From a virus (lineage: Duplodnaviria; Heunggongvirae; Uroviricota; Caudoviricetes), in the IMG/VR virus record IMGVR_UViG_2565956729_000008, positions 1 to 20,419 of that record: DNA of 20,419 nucleotides; one strand, 5' to 3'. Made by a program: the position numbers and the translations under genes. The notes under the pieces are model-generated. The model was given only the letters and a program-made list of their open reading frames with translations, ran no database searches and had not been told where the DNA came from. Below, one piece after another: positions 6,467 to 20,419 of the stretch. The stretch's first letter is position 1. Each line of letters begins with the position of its first letter.

Positions 6467-6804
6467 AACTCTCCGATAAGCAACAACAATTTACCGTCAT
6501 GATCGGAAAACTCATCCAGTTTGCCCATCAGCGCGGTTATGGCCTGACGTTCGGTGAGGCGTACCGCACGCCAGAGCAGGCAAAACTCAACGCACAAAAG
6601 GGATCAGGCATCACCAACAGTCTGCACTGCCAGCGACTGGCGGTGGATTTTAATCTGTTTATTAACGGTGAATACCAGACCCGCACAGAGGCTTACCGCG
6701 AACTGGGCGAGTACTGGGAATCCCTCGGCGGCACATGGGGCGGTCGTTTTAAAAACCGCCCGGATGGCAATCATTTCAGCCTTGAGCACGACGGTGTGCG
6801 CTGA
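6463..6804 (+). CDS. Endolysin, peptidase M15 / LAS-type zinc metallopeptidase
   Basis: 113 aa with an H-x6-D motif (HCQRLAVD) and a downstream His pair (NHFSLEHD), matching the zinc-binding triad of M15-family cell-wall peptidases. AAGGAG ribosome-binding site upstream. Sits next to the holin. Confidence 0.85.
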   Translation: MKLSDKQQQFTVMIGKLIQFAHQRGYGLTFGEAYRTPEQAKLNAQKGSGITNSLHCQRLAVDFNLFINGEYQTRTEAYRELGEYWESLGGTWGGRFKNRPDGNHFSLEHDGVR

Positions 6805-14020: not shown

Positions 14021-16548
14021 TGAGCGCGCTGTTGACGAAAGCATTTGAGAAATGGGTTGCTGAATGTGCCGCCAGTAATTTACCGGCGCGACCTGACTCC
14101 ATTGTTTTTGCACTGATGGAAAGGGAACCATCCAGAAATGATGAAGTTGTCCCTCCTGAAAAAATCACACACACGGTAAATAATCTGCGCTATGGAAAAC
14201 TGGATCCAAACAGCATTGTCTGTAGTGCCGTTGTTGCTGATAACGAGACATTCACTTACGACTGGATTTGCCTGGTCCATCAACCCAGCAACACACTCTG
14301 CGGCGTAATTAAAACCCCGGTTCGTCACAAACTGACCGGCGAAACACTTATCCGCAATTTTGCTGTTATTTATAGCGGACTGGCTCAGGCTGCACACATT
14401 ACTGTTCCTCCTGAAAGCTGGCAAACAGACATCTCGCAGGAGCTGAAAACAATTCAGGGTTTTATCAGCGATCACATAGCAGTATCAACCCGTTATGCGG
14501 TTACCGAAGCTAATAAGCAGTTTTTGTCCATGCAGATAACCCACGGGCGTTATTCAGGGATCTGGCGCTATCTTAATTCAACCGGGGGTATTAACTGGTA
14601 TTTTTTGTTTCTTGCAATGTATGAAAGCGAAGGTAAAGCCTTTTCTCTCAGGGACAGACTCGTTATTTGTGAAAAAGCCTTTCGTCTCGGTATAACAGCG
14701 CCATTCATGACGAATTTCCGCTATGAAGCCGGACAGCATGTGATGATTAACAGCACGCTATTTTTTGTAAATATCGCCGGCATTACTGGAGAAACCACAC
14801 CTGATATCAGTAGCATCTTACAAGGTGAGTTTATTTATACAGGTTCCGCTGTTCTTGAATGTCTCGGGAAGACCAGTAAAGAGATCCCGTCATCATGGTC
14901 ATGGTTCTTTACCGATGTGGCCGCTGATTTATATTCACCGGTTGCCCCTGATTCTACAGACAGTTACCCATCCCTCTGGTTTGCCTGTATTGCTGAAATT
15001 GCAGACGCTTCGTGGTTACAGACCCCTTCAGGGCTCGGCAATCATTCCAGATGGGAAATTATCAGACTGGTAGCGGAAAATAATATTTTACGTCAGCTAA
15101 ATACTGACGCAAATCTGGTAAACGTCTTTCAGGGAAACGTTGCTCCCGGTAATACTCATTACGCGCAATGTTTTTGTCAGGATAATGCCGAAGTGTATGC
15201 CGGTTTACGGGCCCTGGTCTTTCTGGCCGGACTGGTTAATGACTCTGATGCTGCCTCGCAATATTCCAACGCAATGAAAACAATTAAAACAGGGTTGCTG
15301 GCATTATTTGTTCCGGGCCAGAACAGATTCAAGACGTATTACAATGAAGCTGATTACCCCGATACCCCGGGCGATGCGCGTTTTGTGCAAAAAGACCGAT
15401 TCTCTGTGGCTCCGTGGCGCTTTGGTGTGCTGAATACGCCTGCTGAACAGGCACAATATGGACTATCCGTTCTGGATGCCATCCAGAAAGATTATCCCGA
15501 TTTATTTACATCGGATTACGCAGGCATTGATACTTTCGCCATGAGCGACTTTTTTGCATTCGTGGCAAAAGTTACAGCCTCACAGACCGCCGCAACAACA
15601 GCTCTCCGTCGTCTGCAGATCAGAAAAACTGCCGCCGTAACAATTTCAGATATTGCATCAGCAATGTCAGTTTCAGCATGGGGATCAGTCCCCTGCATGA
15701 GTACACGCGACTTTATACGAATTAATGGTCGCTCCGTTGTTGGAGATGAAGATATTGTCTTTCCGGAAAGAGAAATCCGGCACATTACCCCCGTCAATAA
15801 CGCCCAGGTGGTTGTGGATAACCTCAACAATGACACCGTATTGTTTATTGATAATGACTCTGCACTTTCATATCTCCAGTTCAAAATAGCGCCGGGGCTG
15901 GTTGATGGTTGCCGCCTGTCAATCACACCGAAAAGGGACGTGACGAGAACATCATTTCTTACGCAGGATGCGCAGGTTTCAGATGCTCCGGAAGCGTTAT
16001 TTGCAGGGAAAAACGTTACATTTACGTACAATGCAACAACGCAAACATGGCACAGAAACTTTGTACCTGCAGTTTCTTCTGCTGCTACAAATTTATTGAA
16101 AAAACAATCAGAATCTCTGTTTGTTGATGGCGCTCACCCGATCATCCCCAAAATGCTTGTAAGCACCCTGAACTCCAGTCTGGATTCATTTAAAAGCCTG
16201 CCCGATGGTTCGCGTGTTTATACCCTGAAGCTGGATGTATCAAACCCCGTCGGGCAATCCTCAGTTGGCGGCATCGGAATCGCTGTTTCAGCGCAGATTG
16301 AGCCGCGTTATCTCTATCAGAACCAGAACCGACAGTACATTCCAGCGCAGTATTTTGTCAGCTCTGTCTCTGCAAATGCGCGAACAATCACTATCGGAAT
16401 ACAGGTGGTGATGCCTGATAAACCTTACTATGCACTGGATATGTCAACACTGGAAGAAATTGCCGGCGCAGATAATGGGTTGCTCCCCTGTGTTGTGGTT
16501 ATAAAAACACTTGCAGGGACAACGTTGCGTCAGAACGGAATGGGATAA
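14020..16548 (+). CDS. Second tail fiber / receptor-binding protein candidate
   Basis: 842 aa, start overlapping the Tfa stop (TAATGA). Residues 1-140 align with the N-terminus of the fiber at 11592 (shared E.W.A, PARPD..VFA, Y.WI.L, S..LC, TP, LIR.F, AA.HI.V, WQ.D). The remainder is unrelated: a helix-rich central region and a beta-rich Ser/Thr/Asn-rich C-terminus. Confidence 0.55.
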   Translation: MSALLTKAFEKWVAECAASNLPARPDSIVFALMEREPSRNDEVVPPEKITHTVNNLRYGKLDPNSIVCSAVVADNETFTYDWICLVHQPSNTLCGVIKTPVRHKLTGETLIRNFAVIYSGLAQAAHITVPPESWQTDISQELKTIQGFISDHIAVSTRYAVTEANKQFLSMQITHGRYSGIWRYLNSTGGINWYFLFLAMYESEGKAFSLRDRLVICEKAFRLGITAPFMTNFRYEAGQHVMINSTLFFVNIAGITGETTPDISSILQGEFIYTGSAVLECLGKTSKEIPSSWSWFFTDVAADLYSPVAPDSTDSYPSLWFACIAEIADASWLQTPSGLGNHSRWEIIRLVAENNILRQLNTDANLVNVFQGNVAPGNTHYAQCFCQDNAEVYAGLRALVFLAGLVNDSDAASQYSNAMKTIKTGLLALFVPGQNRFKTYYNEADYPDTPGDARFVQKDRFSVAPWRFGVLNTPAEQAQYGLSVLDAIQKDYPDLFTSDYAGIDTFAMSDFFAFVAKVTASQTAATTALRRLQIRKTAAVTISDIASAMSVSAWGSVPCMSTRDFIRINGRSVVGDEDIVFPEREIRHITPVNNAQVVVDNLNNDTVLFIDNDSALSYLQFKIAPGLVDGCRLSITPKRDVTRTSFLTQDAQVSDAPEALFAGKNVTFTYNATTQTWHRNFVPAVSSAATNLLKKQSESLFVDGAHPIIPKMLVSTLNSSLDSFKSLPDGSRVYTLKLDVSNPVGQSSVGGIGIAVSAQIEPRYLYQNQNRQYIPAQYFVSSVSANARTITIGIQVVMPDKPYYALDMSTLEEIAGADNGLLPCVVVIKTLAGTTLRQNGMG

Positions 16549-17295: not shown

Positions 17296-17842
17296 CGGGG
17301 AAGCCATTCTGTTACGCAACATCATCGTCAGCGCCACCATGCAACTACCGGATAAAGATATGTCCGGACAGTCAACCAGCACCACCAGTGCCCAGCAGGG
17401 AAGCAAGGCTAAAGAGCTGCGTGTATCAGGCGTCATTGATTTTAATGATGAAGCTGTTCTGACCCGTATATTTCAGCTTGCAGAAGCCACAGAAAGCAAC
17501 GGGGCTAAAAAAACATACCGCATCGCCAACGCTACTGCTAAGGCGATTAATATGCGACAGGGTGTTTTTTCGGGCGGCATTGATGCCACGGAACAACAGG
17601 GCAAGATGCACTGGCAGGTCACCTTTACTCTCAGGGAAAAATTAAGCGTGCCGGAAAAAGCATCGGCACGCAGTGGCTCACAGAAAACAATCGCAAAGCA
17701 GCAAACACAGAACGGCAGTGAGCAGGCACCGGATAAAGGAATGAATACCCAGGAGACTTTCTGGAAAAATATCAATGATGGTATTGGCTCCGGGCTGGAC
17801 TGGATTGGCATCGGGAGCGTGAAAGAGGAAGGGAAAACATGA
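17267..17842 (+). CDS. Putative tail protein (GpU-like)
   Basis: 191 aa; alternative start at 17276 (MIVLALDGE). Loose pattern resemblance to P2 GpU. Directly precedes the hub/spike-like gene, as U precedes D in P2. Confidence 0.4.
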   Translation: MTQMIVLALDGEAILLRNIIVSATMQLPDKDMSGQSTSTTSAQQGSKAKELRVSGVIDFNDEAVLTRIFQLAEATESNGAKKTYRIANATAKAINMRQGVFSGGIDATEQQGKMHWQVTFTLREKLSVPEKASARSGSQKTIAKQQTQNGSEQAPDKGMNTQETFWKNINDGIGSGLDWIGIGSVKEEGKT

Positions 17843-19536
17843 AGTTAATCCAACGTTGCATGATTAATGGCGAGCTGGCGGAAATTGCCGATATCAGCCT
17901 TGTCCTTACCCTGAATGCTGCCGGTCGCGGCTTCATTTCTGTTAATAATCTGTCACCGGAAAAAAGCCTTGCCGGCGCAATGATACAAATTGATCTCGGC
18001 CGTAATGGTGAGGCATGGCGCTATTTCTCCGGCTACATTGAGCGCGATCAACCCGCCGAAAATGGCTCACGCCGCCTTTTTATCCGTGAAGCAGCTGCCG
18101 TGCTGGATTTTGATTTCCCCTGCTCCATGCAACATCCAACGTTACGGGATGTACTCGATAATCTGGGTAAACAAAGCGGCATCGTTTTCATCACGCCAGA
18201 TGCAGATTACGTCAGCACACCGACACCTTACATCACCCACAGCGGCAGCGGAGCACAACTGCTCAGCCAGCTGGGGCGAGCATTCAGTATCAGCGATTAC
18301 GTCTGGCATCCAATGCCGGACGGTTCCGTATTTGTGGGAAGTGCACCGGATTCACGGTTTGCCAGTATTACCATGCCGGATATTCCGCAGCAGTACACAC
18401 TCGGACAAAGCGGCGGAAACAGCATCGACATCATGTTTATGGAAACTGTGCGACCGGGCGTGAACCTTCCGGCCGGGCGCATTACCCGTGTAGCCCTCAA
18501 CAACGAGAAAATGACCCTGACATGGGAACGCCTTACCGCCACGGGTAGCCCTGTTTCCAAATCACCATTACGCAGACAGATGGAAACACAGTTCCCGGAA
18601 CTGGCCAGCGGCACTCTGCATACCCGACTGGCGCGCGTCATTGCCCCAACGGAATCCGTCACCCTGGGCGATATTGCCGACAGCTTCCGCCCACGCTACG
18701 CCGTCGATGTGCAACTGCTTGATGAGAACGGCAACGATAAAAGCGATACGCCTGTTTATCCGGCAGTACCACTCCCCGTCCCGATGGCTGGTAGCGAAGC
18801 GGGATGTTTTGCCTACCCGCCGGCAGGCACCATCGTGGAAATATCCAACATTGAAGGGCGACCGGATAAACCTGTCATCAGGCAAATCTTACCCGCGGGC
18901 CATAACCTGCCTGATGTAAAGCCCGGCGAACAGCTGCAGCAACAGCGCGCAGAGGTGTTTCAGCGCGTCACGACTGACGGAAGCTGGCACAGAGAAACTG
19001 ACCAGCAAATCAGGGAGCATTCAGCCAGGCGAACCATTAACAGCGATCAGGAAGAACGCACAACAACAACCAGAACAACAACAGTCCAAGCAAACGACAT
19101 AACCAGTGTTCTTGGTACCAGTAAGCTGATGACAGGCCAGACAGAACACCTTACTACCGGCAATTATGCGATCGCAGCCGGTGAGCATATCCAGATGGTA
19201 GCGCAGGATTTGCTGACTCAACTCAAAGGGGCGATATCCACCATTGAGCATGACCTCACCGAAAACGTGGGAGGCCGCAGAACATGCAGGGCGGACGGAG
19301 GTCTGGAGTTTACCGCCCCGACAGTATTTATTGGTCGCGGTGGCTCGCGGGAAAAATCCGGGCTTAACCTGCTGACATTGCTGATCGATATTCTGGACCT
19401 GGTTCAGTTGCTGGCCACACATACAGCAAACCACACCCATAGCAACACTGGCACGCCAATGAACAGCGGCGAACTTGCCGCAGATGCCCTGCAGGCAACG
19501 AGCCTGCGCGAAAAATACGGCGACATTATCGCCTGA
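17839..19536 (+). CDS. Putative baseplate hub / central spike protein (GpD/GpV-like)
   Basis: 565 aa, start overlapping the upstream stop (ATGA). Last gene before a strong terminator. C-terminal THTANHTHSNTGTP resembles the His-x-His apex motif of P2 GpV-type spikes. Its length suggests a fused hub-spike architecture. This is an inference. Confidence 0.45.
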   Translation: MKLIQRCMINGELAEIADISLVLTLNAAGRGFISVNNLSPEKSLAGAMIQIDLGRNGEAWRYFSGYIERDQPAENGSRRLFIREAAAVLDFDFPCSMQHPTLRDVLDNLGKQSGIVFITPDADYVSTPTPYITHSGSGAQLLSQLGRAFSISDYVWHPMPDGSVFVGSAPDSRFASITMPDIPQQYTLGQSGGNSIDIMFMETVRPGVNLPAGRITRVALNNEKMTLTWERLTATGSPVSKSPLRRQMETQFPELASGTLHTRLARVIAPTESVTLGDIADSFRPRYAVDVQLLDENGNDKSDTPVYPAVPLPVPMAGSEAGCFAYPPAGTIVEISNIEGRPDKPVIRQILPAGHNLPDVKPGEQLQQQRAEVFQRVTTDGSWHRETDQQIREHSARRTINSDQEERTTTTRTTTVQANDITSVLGTSKLMTGQTEHLTTGNYAIAAGEHIQMVAQDLLTQLKGAISTIEHDLTENVGGRRTCRADGGLEFTAPTVFIGRGGSREKSGLNLLTLLIDILDLVQLLATHTANHTHSNTGTPMNSGELAADALQATSLREKYGDIIA

Positions 19537-19575
19537 ACACCAGACATAAAAGCCACATAAACGCCCCATCACATA

Positions 19576-19600
19576 ACGCACGGTCCCGGCCGTGCGTTTT
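19576..19600 (+). terminator. Rho-independent terminator at the end of the late operon
   Basis: ACGCACGG-tcccgg-CCGTGCGT followed by TTTT: a GC-rich 8-bp stem, short loop and U-tract, 40 bp after the last tail gene stop. Confidence 0.7.
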
Positions 19601-19856
19601 CCTATCCACCACCTGATTAATGCGTTCTGCGTGCCATTCTGGTGCTGTATGCGCACACCGCGTAAACGGTGTGACGTAAAGCGTGAGGTGACGTAAACCG
19701 CGCTACCCCCTCCAACCCGCGGGTTTTGTGTTGAAACGCTTTTTCAGTTTTCTGGCGTGCAAAAATGACCGCCAGCCAGCGCAGTAACTGGGGGGAAAGC
19801 GAAGTTCTGAAATTTCACACTTTGAAATTTTTTGCAATTTTAAGAGAGATTTTTTC

Positions 19857-20067
19857 GATCGCATAAATGGCAGGAGAAACAAAACAGACTGATATTAAAA
19901 GAGTTTTCATACTTTACGCGAGACAAAAAACGATCACGAAAGGATCGCATCAAACAACCATCAGACAAAGAAGCCAGACACGGCGCGGCCTGCACAAAAT
20001 TAACGGGTAAAATAAAACTGAAAAAAGGATCACAACAGGGCGACGATCGCATCATAAAGATCGGCAT
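19857..20067. repeat. GATC-containing direct repeats in an A-rich non-coding region
   Basis: Four copies of GATCG(G)CAT-AAA: GATCGCATAAA at 19857, GATCGCATCAAA at 19943, GATCGCATCATAAA at 20045 and GATCGGCATAAAA at 20059. Seven GATC sites fall within 19857-20116. Confidence 0.4.
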
Positions 20068-20096
20068 AAAAGGTTCAACTGGATAAGGTTATGCAA

Positions 20097-20126
20097 TTGA
20101 AACAGAAGAGATGATCAGGCTAGAAT
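20097..20126 (+). promoter_or_regulatory. Candidate sigma70 promoter for the hok-like transcript
   Basis: TTGAAA (20097-20102), 18-bp spacer, TAGAAT (20121-20126). A GATC lies in the spacer. Predicted start site is about 145 nt upstream of the hok-like ATG, consistent with the long structured leaders of hok-family mRNAs. Confidence 0.3.
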
Positions 20127-20258
20127 CGCTGCGGGTGCCTTTCGGCTGATGGTCGGAGGGTAAGCCCGAAGGCCGGATGTGGAAAGGCCCCGGAAAACAT
20201 TTTCTGTTTAACCGAGGCCCTATCCCGTCTACCTAGCAAGTGACAGGTTAGCGCCTCC

Positions 20259-20372
20259 ATGAAAAAGGAGCAAGCGCTATGTCGCAAAAATCGCTTACGG
20301 CCATCACGTTCTGCGCGACGGTCATCCTTATCATCTGGATGTTGCACGGTTCGCTGTGTGAAATACGGATGA
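20259..20372 (+). CDS. Possible mok-like overlapping reading frame
   Basis: ATG at 20259 opens a 37-codon frame that overlaps the hok-like ORF in another frame and ends at TGA 20370-20372. Arrangement is reminiscent of mok/hok translational coupling. It is shorter than canonical mok. Confidence 0.25.
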   Translation: MKKEQALCRKNRLRPSRSARRSSLSSGCCTVRCVKYG

Positions 20373-20419
20373 GCTTCTGGGGTGCGGAGTTTGCGGCGTT
20401 CTTACAATGTAAACAGTAA
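20279..20419 (+). CDS. hok: Hok/Gef-family type I toxin (small membrane protein)
   Basis: 46-aa ORF, MSQKSLTAITFCATVILIIWMLHGSLCEIRMSFWGAEFAAFLQCKQ. Hydrophobic transmembrane N-terminus with C-A-T-V-I, then SLCEIR identical to the plasmid R1 Hok core, and an EVAAF-like EFAAF. GGAG ribosome-binding site 8 nt upstream. Absent from the ORF track because of its size. Confidence 0.8.
   Translation: MSQKSLTAITFCATVILIIWMLHGSLCEIRMSFWGAEFAAFLQCKQ

Follow-up and report, generated by a model that had tools for sequence, protein, structure and literature searches.

A conserved cluster of GATC sites beside the predicted cos site of an HP1-like prophage and its absence from P4-like satellites

General features of the GATC-rich region

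The DNA analysed here, called the window below, is the whole 20 419-nucleotide stretch of the IMG/VR record IMGVR_UViG_2565956729_000008. It represents the late half of a P2-family prophage, with genes for a GPO-type scaffold, a P2-type capsid, the sheath, the tape measure, the baseplate and the tail fibres. The last structural gene (17839–19536) encodes a Vgr/gp5-like baseplate hub and is followed by a non-coding region and a hok/sok toxin cassette. Part of this non-coding region (19857–20116) had been described from its sequence as dense in GATC, rich in A, free of any convincing open reading frame (ORF) and provided with direct repeats, the GATC sites and the repeats recalling Dam/SeqA-regulated switches, replication origins or iterons (the original prediction). 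The results reported below indicate that the GATC sites are very probably conserved, functional, Dam-related sites of a module adjoining cos, the predicted packaging site, and do not belong to hok.

There are seven GATC sites in these 260 bp (at 19857, 19932, 19943, 20028, 20045, 20059 and 20113). The whole window has 60, or one per 340 bp, which is not above the level of dinucleotide shuffles. The expected number for the region is 0.76, giving a Poisson probability of at least seven sites of 1.6e-5 per 260-bp window and of about 1.2e-3 once corrected for about 79 windows. When the whole window was scanned, the next-densest 260-bp stretch outside the locus had three sites. The predicted enrichment is thus confirmed and differs clearly from the background density of the window. 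The plus strand of the region is 43% A (113/260), also as predicted. Its non-coding nature is borne out by several observations: only short mechanical ORFs overlap it; its cross-genus alignment shows variable spacers with insertions and deletions, incompatible with coding; and no feature is annotated in RefSeq under the homologous stretch among the matches listed. The stretch is carried by 51 E. coli genomes.

The repeats of the original prediction exist, as three exact copies of GATCGCAT (at 19857, 19943 and 20045) and one variant copy, GATCGGCAT, at 20059; the window contains GATCGCAT four times against 1.14 expected. In the relatives L001, L002 and L008, about 90% identical, GATCGCAT is found in a single copy each and the GATC cores are retained. 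The longer repeat, GATCGCAT-AAA, is therefore not the conserved unit. Alignment of the relatives shows that the sites at 19857, 19932, 19943, 20028 and 20045 are kept in E. coli and E. albertii, and that those at 20059 and 20113 are private to the window sequence. Comparison with related prophages thus upholds GATC cores at fixed positions, and neither the long repeat nor these two sites. The sites at 19932 and 19943, 11 bp apart, form the sole GATC pair at 9–13 bp spacing in the 20.4-kb window.

Position of the region beside cos

Homologues of the hub protein place the prophage in the HP1-like branch of the Peduoviridae (HP1/HP2, K139, phiO18P, F108, ESSI-2, SW5 and Pseudomonas phi3), a family with a gpM-type small terminase (PF05944). 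A complete relative in E. coli ETEC4077, with 27-bp att repeats at either end, carries int, a repressor, a gpA-type replication endonuclease, ParM/ParR and ogr in its early part. Its late part encodes the portal, terminase, scaffold, capsid, gpM, tail and baseplate hub, and after the hub gene come the intergenic region, hok, TM2, Com, a DNA methyltransferase and attR. An assignment to the Mu-like prophages, considered on account of two relatives with Com at different chromosomal sites, was ruled out by the P2-type integrase, gpA, ogr and the Q-P-O-N-M genes.

The position of cos could be deduced from the relatives. The records of ESSI2_ev129 and SW5 end within a block (GGCGCTAC/ACCGCACCCGCC) homologous to 19699–19728 of the window: the former ends, just inside the assembly adapter, with ...AAACGGCGCTAC, and the latter ends with ...GGCGCTACACCGC and restarts with GCACCCGCCTGC...; the corresponding block of the window is GTAAACCGCGCTACCCCCTCCAACCCGCGGG (19693–19724). 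In HP1 and phiO18P, cosL is annotated at the same position relative to the hub gene, and C5a carries the cos block at both ends of its record. The record ends, the cosL annotations and the C5a block together place the prophage cos, with its predicted cohesive-end cut, at about 19699–19728, and the GATC-rich region 158–417 bp beyond it. Offsets from the cos anchor are given below with a plus sign. The features of the locus are as follows, those listed with no strand being unstranded.

19575–19600, plus strand: terminator-like hairpin AACGCACGG...CCGTGCGTT with a T run, a perfect 9-bp inverted repeat that ends the tail/baseplate operon
19661–19697, plus strand: three CGTAAA boxes (19661, 19675, 19692) upstream of the cos cut
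19699–19728: cos core CGCGCTACCCCCTCCAACCCGCGGGTTTTG, with the cohesive-end cut predicted from record ends and cosL annotations
19740–19752: TTTTTCAGTTTTC box, the first CTGAAA-type box after cos, at +43/+44
19769–19795: GC-rich dyad CCGCCAG...CTGGGGGG, conserved across the family
19805–19841: box array TTCTGAAATTTCACACTTTGAAATTTTTTGCAATTTT, proposed terminase (cosB-like) recognition boxes
19857–19860: GATC at the conserved offset +158, remnant of pair 1 (GGATC-N6/7-GGATC in most relatives)
19889–19922: conserved block CTGATATTAAAAGAG...CATACTTTACGCGAG, from the cross-genus alignment
19931–19947: GATC pair 2, CGATCACGAAAGGATCG (19932, 19943), intact, at +233/+244
19970–19995: conserved block GAAGCCAGACACGGCGCGGCCTGCAC, holding GGCGCGG, from the alignment and the context listing
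20014–20027: last CTGAAA box, AAAACTGAAAAAAG, end of the family-wide module
20027–20064: lineage-specific GATC group (20028, 20045, 20059), at +329, +346 and +360
20097–20126, plus strand: hok promoter-like site TTGAAA-18-TAGAAT, with the unconserved GATC 20113 in the 18-bp spacer
20133–20419, plus strand: hok/sok cassette, with the leader and sok region at 20133–20292 and the Hok coding sequence (CDS) at 20279–20419 (Pfam HOK_GEF)

Conservation of the GATC sites across the family

Eighty loci, one genome per species, were gathered via hub proteins 45–95% identical to that of the window. GATC statistics were compiled for 62 genome loci over the 450 bp after cos, with the expectation taken from dinucleotide shuffles: there are 247 GATC sites against 67.6 expected. 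Downstream of the hub gene, dozens of genera have these sites at the same mutual spacing. The loci fall into three variants according to the sequence of the boxes described below, CTGAAA (variant A), TTGCAAA (variant B) and mixed (the window type), and all of them have GATC at fixed offsets from cos. These recur, within 1 bp, at 31, 158, 169 and 233 in variant A; at 31, 205, 226, 345 and 356 in variant B; and at 105, 158, 233, 244 and 330 in the window type. The relatives thus have a GATC at +31, and the first of the window is at +158.

The site at +157/158 (19857 in the window) is present in the window lineage and in 32/32 variant-A loci, 27 of which also have the one at +233; the latter is paired in L021, L042, L087 and Edwardsiella, as in the window (19932/19943, +233/+244). 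GATC pairs with N6–N8 spacers are found in most relatives, the spacer being variable and the GATC invariant, and the flanks differ by lineage (CGATCA, TGATCA, AGATCT, GGATCG). The distal sites 20028/20045 (+329/+346) are common to the relatives from E. coli, E. albertii and Edwardsiella, with the form GATC-N7-GATC in Edwardsiella; the private sites 20059 and 20113 map to +360 and +414. The conserved offsets are in helical phase (R 0.94–0.98 at 10.65–10.85 bp; P 0.001–0.016).

L001 and L002 carry an insertion of about 85 bp (at about 6490–6620), located after the last GATC pair and before the hok promoter, with an extra GATC and a GC-rich hairpin, CCGGCGCGAACGCCGG; the window is shorter and different there (20050–20095).

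The clustering of GATC on one face of the helix, together with the AT-richness and the repeated boxes, recalls oriC or the oriR of P1, and a SeqA-sequestered replication origin or iteron region was part of the original prediction. This is highly improbable, and that claim was not upheld. DnaA, OxyR, LexA and Ogr-dyad motifs are absent from 19540–20130, and the scan for DnaA boxes gave a single match, with one mismatch. No initiator gene adjoins the module, and the gene for the gpA/Rep-type nicking protein belongs to the early operon, some 25 kb from the module. P2-like phages have their origin inside the gpA gene. Finally, satellites with their own primase keep the boxes and not the GATC sites.

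Organization of the module

The GATC-rich region is the distal part of a non-coding module of about 330–420 bp that begins at cos, after the last baseplate gene. The elements follow one another in this order: ACGTAAA boxes, the cos core, a TTTCAG box, a GC-rich dyad (CGCCAG...CTGGCG) and four CTGAAA-type boxes about 10 bp apart; then the GGATC-N6/7-GGATC pair, GATATTAAAGG...TTTTACGTGGG, a GATC or a GATC pair, GCCAG...GGCGCGG and a last AAACTGAAA box. The hairpin at 19575–19600, upstream of the module, is kept in the relatives and in a satellite of E. coli 52F4 (see below), and a terminator is annotated at the same place in K139.

The ACGTAAAA/ACGAAA boxes are equally placed in all relatives, HP1 included, and the first box after cos is at +43/+44 in nearly all of them, including HP1, F108 and C5a. 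The motif CGCCAG-N-CGCGCC-N-CTGG(C/G)G of the dyad is kept throughout the family and in Pseudomonas phages; a covariation test was uninformative because the arms, CGCCAG...CTGGCG, are nearly invariant. The four boxes of variant A are at +116, 125, 135 and 145. They are replaced by TTGCAAA in variant B and SW5, and by GTGAAA in the Pseudomonas phages. The GATATTAAAGG...TTTTACGTGGG block is conserved from Enterobacterales to Pasteurella and Pseudoalteromonas, and most relatives, like most satellites, carry AAACTGAAA at about +300 to +323. The GGCGCGG at 19970–19995 is the inverse of CCGCGCC in the dyad region of most relatives; the dyad of the window reads CCAGCGC.

Two interleaved inverted repeats flank the boxes and the GATC sites. 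One is ACGTAAA...TTTACGT, with arms about 220 bp apart (19692–19697 and 19913–19918, the latter being TTTACG, an inverted copy of the CGTAAA box); the other, seen in the relatives, is CCGCGCC...GGCGCGG, about 190 bp apart (19769–19795 and 19970–19995). Such long-range repeats could be paired sites for proteins that loop the DNA.

The drift of the box sequences between lineages is what one would expect if the sites co-evolve with a phage protein, for which the gpM-type small terminase is the simplest candidate. The CTGAAA/TTGCAA-type boxes are therefore most likely the recognition region of the small terminase, equivalent to cosB, with binding of the protein to them being putative. The GATC core, on the other hand, is constant across host orders, which points to a reader conserved in the hosts, that is, methylation by Dam together with a protein, such as SeqA, whose binding is sensitive to methylation. 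It is distinctly unlikely that (G)GATC is instead the site of a phage-encoded protein, the small subunit of the terminase or another, which would extend the box array and for which methylation would be irrelevant. Such a protein would fit the G that precedes GATC in 28–32 of the 32 pair-1 sites, as well as the position of the GATC pair, which continues the 10–11 bp periodicity of the four boxes; its specificity could also differ where the sites are absent, in satellites and Pseudomonas. However, the boxes drift (CTGAAA, TTGCAAA, GTGAAA) while GATC is fixed from Enterobacterales to Vibrio, Pasteurella and Pseudoalteromonas, and the differing flanks of GATC are those expected of a host-conserved and not of a phage-conserved reader.

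The module was also searched for signs of transcription. A promoter inside it could be regulated by the GATC pairs in a Dam- or SeqA-sensitive manner, either leftward with GATC in the –35 element or activated by SeqA as at lambda pR, and from it would come a non-coding transcript, transcription reading through cos, or expression of the downstream cargo or int region. In about 12 loci, most of them from Xenorhabdus, a promoter-like sequence on the minus strand, (T/G)TGATC-17-TAGAAT/TATAAT, extends over the +233 GATC; the window has a minus-strand promoter-like site at 20078–20051, and its 19932/19943 pair could be read as a terminator-like hairpin. Satellites, being self-regulated, could do without control of this kind. 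We consider this explanation unlikely, since even the commonest promoter-like site is shared by no more than about a quarter of the 62 modules scanned, and those present, in a minority of loci, are weak matches in AT-rich DNA, the window version scoring 3–4/6 per hexamer. The downstream genes also vary (hok, tum-like or none). No Rfam family matches the module, either in the window region searched in E-value mode or in 14 related loci; the matches elsewhere are sok, tRNA, tmRNA and an unrelated sRNA. Nor do the loci share any ORF with consistency. The minus-strand terminator hairpin was rejected, since the paired GATCs form no extended stems in the relatives, where only their palindromic cores could pair.

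A strict integration host factor (IHF) consensus, WATCAANNNNTTR, is found at about +181 in some eight of the 62 loci, just upstream of the GATATTAAAGG...TTTTACGTGGG block; it is absent from the window even with one mismatch allowed.

Downstream of the module, the general arrangement is variable cargo (hok, a LexA box with a tum-like ORF, or none), then integrase arm sites and the att core, often in a tRNA gene. In relatives without cargo the module lies about 100–250 bp from the att core, which is followed by int, and its periodicity of about 10 bp recalls the arrays, of roughly this period, that are bound by Cox/Apl-type proteins. An accessory arm of the attachment site, with Cox, IHF or Int sites aiding integration or excision, is nevertheless very unlikely. 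In the window lineage (L003), 2.3 kb separate the module from the att repeat, with hok, TM2 and the com–methyltransferase genes in between, and the early switch region has no similar boxes. The same module is found with different integrases, arm sites and integration sites (pheA/raiA, flk, tRNA genes, the smf/def region), and the mapped attP of HP1 (251–694), which starts 250 bp past cosL, excludes the region. In SW5 (L007), direct repeats of TGTGGACA at about 421–445 and 618–642 resemble integrase arm sites around the att core. Two hypothetical CDSs annotated within the module of this Salmonella phage (18–182 and 352–558) are probably spurious.

Satellites lack the GATC sites

One of the loci (L091, 4400–10219) lies beside hpt in E. 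coli 52F4. Besides the module and hok, this element carries a hypothetical gene, an ogr/delta-like gene and genes for a P4-type integrase and a toprim primase, and by this gene content it is a P4-like satellite. In the cos part, its identity to the window is about 95%. The boxes, the GATATT...TACTTTACG block and the last CTGAAA box are all retained; every GATC of the window is substituted. About nine complete E. coli genomes have the module of this satellite type.

The contrast was examined more broadly by scanning IMG/VR with the 19-nt cos core, which gave 120 loci, all of which were classified. The 83 distinct phage modules, recognized by a baseplate gene upstream, have a mean of 2.08 GATC sites at +140 to +260, and 58 of them have at least two. 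P4-like satellites have none there (six of six distinct IMG/VR modules, plus the 52F4 satellite), a difference with a hypergeometric P of about 9e-6, calculated by hand and ignoring relatedness. The boxes in +100 to +160 are as numerous in satellites as in phages (about 3.75 vs 3.62), and the satellites L122 and L146 have extra TTTCAG boxes exactly at the position of the phage GATC pair. Since satellites keep cos and the boxes, these appear to be what an element needs for this terminase, and the GATC sites are, by this comparison, a helper-specific addition to them.

The same cos core and boxes, without GATC pairs, are found in other compact elements of IMG/VR (L104, L152 and L128). In L128, terminase- and scaffold-like genes end about 70 bp before cos, and L104 and L152 have in common a 285-aa gene directly after a shortened module. 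They may be further types of satellites or phages with a different tail module.

The satellites also bear on hok. Control of the hok promoter by Dam, or a phase switch for hok of the pap/agn43 type, was suggested by the GATC at 20113, which does lie in the spacer of the promoter-like site, with the cluster upstream. The site is, however, missing in relatives about 90% identical (those of E. coli read AACC at this position), and the conserved GATC sites are found in dozens of relatives without hok. The 52F4 satellite has hok with the same promoter and no upstream GATC. No OxyR half-site was found with up to two mismatches, in a scan that did not include Lrp sites. Of all the explanations considered, this one is the least probable.

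Host range and methyltransferases

The GATC signature, including a near-identical GATCTGAAAGGATCG, is found in K139, phiO18P, F108, HP1 and C5a, and the module recurs in HP1-like Peduoviridae of Enterobacterales. After cos, GATC is found at 180/190 and 257/278 in K139 (Vibrio), at 93, 111/121 and 311 in phiO18P (Aeromonas), at 87/100 and 150 in F108 (Pasteurella), at 112 and 163 in HP1 (Haemophilus) and at 102, 109, 119 and 229 in C5a (Pseudoalteromonas), where one GATC directly follows the TTTACGTGAGG block. We take the orders of all these hosts to possess Dam and SeqA.

Pseudomonas is presumably a host genus without Dam. Its phages phi3 and PaBSM keep the cos core, the GTGAAA boxes and the dyad, which are followed directly by the integrase arm sites. 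There is a single GATC in this part of phi3, about 200 bp after cos, and none in PaBSM between position 2222 and the integrase gene; the neighbouring genes of both have a GATC every 85–140 bp or so. In our sample, which includes few hosts without Dam, the signature is thus confined to phages of the Dam/SeqA clade.

Some of the phages encode methyltransferases. HP1 is reported to encode a Dam, and what phage Dams do is described as poorly understood (PMC7556043). The early methyltransferase orf8 of K139 has only weak Pfam support and no class placement. At the right end of L003 (40513–41461), a Com zinc-ribbon regulator overlaps a PF01555 DNA methyltransferase of unassigned specificity, an arrangement like com-mom of Mu. 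The same integrating, P2-family prophage also has ParM/ParR-like partition genes (14582–15860).

A possible link between methylation and packaging

The Dam/SeqA character proposed for the cluster is supported by a GATC core that is fixed while its flanks vary, by pairs one helical turn apart and by the Dam/SeqA-clade hosts of the sample. Since the GATC pairs are kept in phages of Dam hosts and are missing from satellites, they probably couple the packaging site to methylation and do not control hok. The fuller proposal is that they couple the cos complex to methylation, and hence to the state of replication, and that satellites have shed this gate; this we advance tentatively, with somewhat less than even confidence, on the strength of sequence comparisons.

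The proposed mechanism is as follows. Host Dam would methylate, and SeqA would read, the sites at 19857, 19932/19943 and 20028/20045, possibly with the help of a phage Dam where one is encoded. Two GATCs about one helical turn apart are the minimal target of SeqA. The sites would be unmethylated or hemimethylated just after replication and fully methylated later, and their state would modulate the assembly or the activity of the terminase complex at cos, by the same logic as at the Dam-regulated pac of P1, here applied to a cos phage. The satellites, which parasitise this terminase, would have dropped the GATC sites, and some would have added boxes, so that their packaging would be independent of methylation. 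In a narrower version of this proposal, SeqA-type binding of pairs left hemimethylated by replication would delay or order the packaging of newly replicated genomes, and satellites would have deleted the gate, some of them putting extra terminase boxes in its place, to out-compete the helper; in this precise form it is rather doubtful. It is by inference that we regard the sites as methylated, SeqA or the terminase as their reader and packaging as the process that they affect.

Several observations weigh against this interpretation. The link to packaging rests on adjacency to cos and on the comparison with satellites. Nine of the 83 phage modules have no GATC at +140 to +260 (e.g. L093, L100, L117 and L168), so the feature is dispensable in some phages, and the satellites without GATC are presumably still packaged, so the sites are not needed for recognition by the terminase and their role must be modulatory. 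The Dam-negative comparison consists of two closely related Pseudomonas phages, effectively one lineage. The methyltransferase of the window lineage is the Com-linked PF01555 enzyme, whose specificity is unassigned. For the distant phages, and for the full seven sites of the window, the helical phasing falls short of significance, and the G preceding GATC at pair 1 could mean a 5-bp motif of a specific protein. Lastly, the GATC sites are on one side of the cut only, the first of the window being 158 bp from the cos anchor.

If the proposal is true, methylation-controlled packaging extends beyond one classic case, P1 pac, to widespread cos phages, including HP1, K139, ESSI-2-like phages and many prophages of Enterobacterales, Vibrio, Pasteurellaceae and Aeromonas; the Dam-like methyltransferases often carried by such phages would have a concrete role, and, in the narrower version, the loss of the gate by satellites would be a previously unrecognised axis of helper–satellite conflict. 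The comparison in any case provides a cis-element that separates helper phages from the P4-like satellites hijacking their terminase, and it defines cos and a likely minimal packaging signal (cos and boxes) for a family of prophages. These can be of use for annotation, in constructing cosmids or transducing particles and in distinguishing satellites from helper phages.

Comparison with known systems

A packaging site linked to methylation is known from P1 pac; what is new here is its possible presence in cos phages and the contrast between helpers and satellites. The literature searched contained no account of GATC sites close to the cos of P2-, HP1- or K139-like phages, older papers on the cos of HP1 and P2 being outside the search.

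In P1, the pac site combines an IHF site with seven GATC hexamers and is cleaved under the control of adenine methylation (PMC10028697). The resemblance to the present module lies in the clustering of GATC at a packaging site, with some sites about 11–12 bp apart, and in the occurrence of Dam-encoding members in the family. P1, however, is a headful (pac) phage whose hexamers lie on both sides of the cut and are pacase sites, whereas the phages studied here are cos phages with GATC on one side. As satellites use the same terminase without these GATC sites, the latter, unlike those of P1 pac, cannot be the primary recognition element. P1 uses its methylation state to time the cleavage of DNA; in the present case a dependence on methylation is putative.

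Lambda cosB is similar in being a one-sided block of about 100–300 bp by the nick, with repeated boxes and bent AT-rich DNA, that is kept by elements dependent on the terminase. It differs in its sites (R sites and the IHF site I1): the boxes and the P2 gpM-type terminase are unrelated to those of lambda, and the IHF consensus is present in a minority of our loci. To our knowledge, lambda cosB has no Dam-site component.

The sharing of cos by P2 and P4 has a close parallel in the P4-like satellites described above (P4-type integrase, alpha-like primase, delta/ogr-like zinc finger), whose cos is near-identical to that of the helper. P2 and 186 also carry repeated TGCA-type boxes (TGCAT/TTGCA) in the last 150 bp or so before the cohesive end, where their placement with respect to cos matches that of the array at 19805–19841, with no GATC before the cohesive ends in the part of the region compared. 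Unlike that of P2, which is beside the portal gene Q, the cos of the HP1-type helpers follows the last baseplate gene and precedes attP/int. The reverse strand of the family cos consensus, GGCGGGTGCGGTGTAGTGC, loosely resembles the 19-nt cohesive end of P2, GGCGAGGCGGGGAAAGCAC (about 10/19 by eye).

Clusters bound by SeqA, such as oriC and P1 oriR, have at least two GATCs one to a few turns apart on the same face and a density several-fold above background, as is the case here. The present cluster is not at an origin, has no DnaA boxes and contains far fewer sites than oriC, and the binding of SeqA is putative. Dam-dependent phase switches (pap, agn43, gtr, opvAB) likewise consist of small sets of GATC in non-coding DNA, sometimes on prophages; the module differs from them in that it has no conserved regulated gene downstream and no OxyR motif, and its position is fixed relative to cos and not to a promoter.

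The hok cassette and other cargo

The hok/sok genes of the window are cargo and not part of the module. The hok loci of other phages align with the window only from 20131 on (about 92% identity). The sok of the window reaches 39.7 bits in Rfam, below the gathering score of 59. This side of the locus is ordinary, a toxin cassette that simply lies downstream of the module.

In a distant relative from Mixta mediterraneensis, a hok/sok cassette is likewise found after the module and before att (L016, 6211–6367; Rfam sok, 91 bits). In L013, L022, L023, L033 and L087, about 330–420 bp past the cos anchor, there are perfect LexA-box-like palindromes, CTGT-N8-ACAG (e.g. TACTGTATATTTATACAGT), followed in the slot of hok by an ORF of about 95 aa (MRRFSLNGALFMF...), which recalls the LexA-controlled tum of phage 186.

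The record of Escherichia phage ESSI2_ev129 (L004; NC_049394.1) begins at positions 1–50 with an untrimmed Nextera mosaic-end adapter, CTGTCTCTTATACACATCT, directly after the physical end of the phage.

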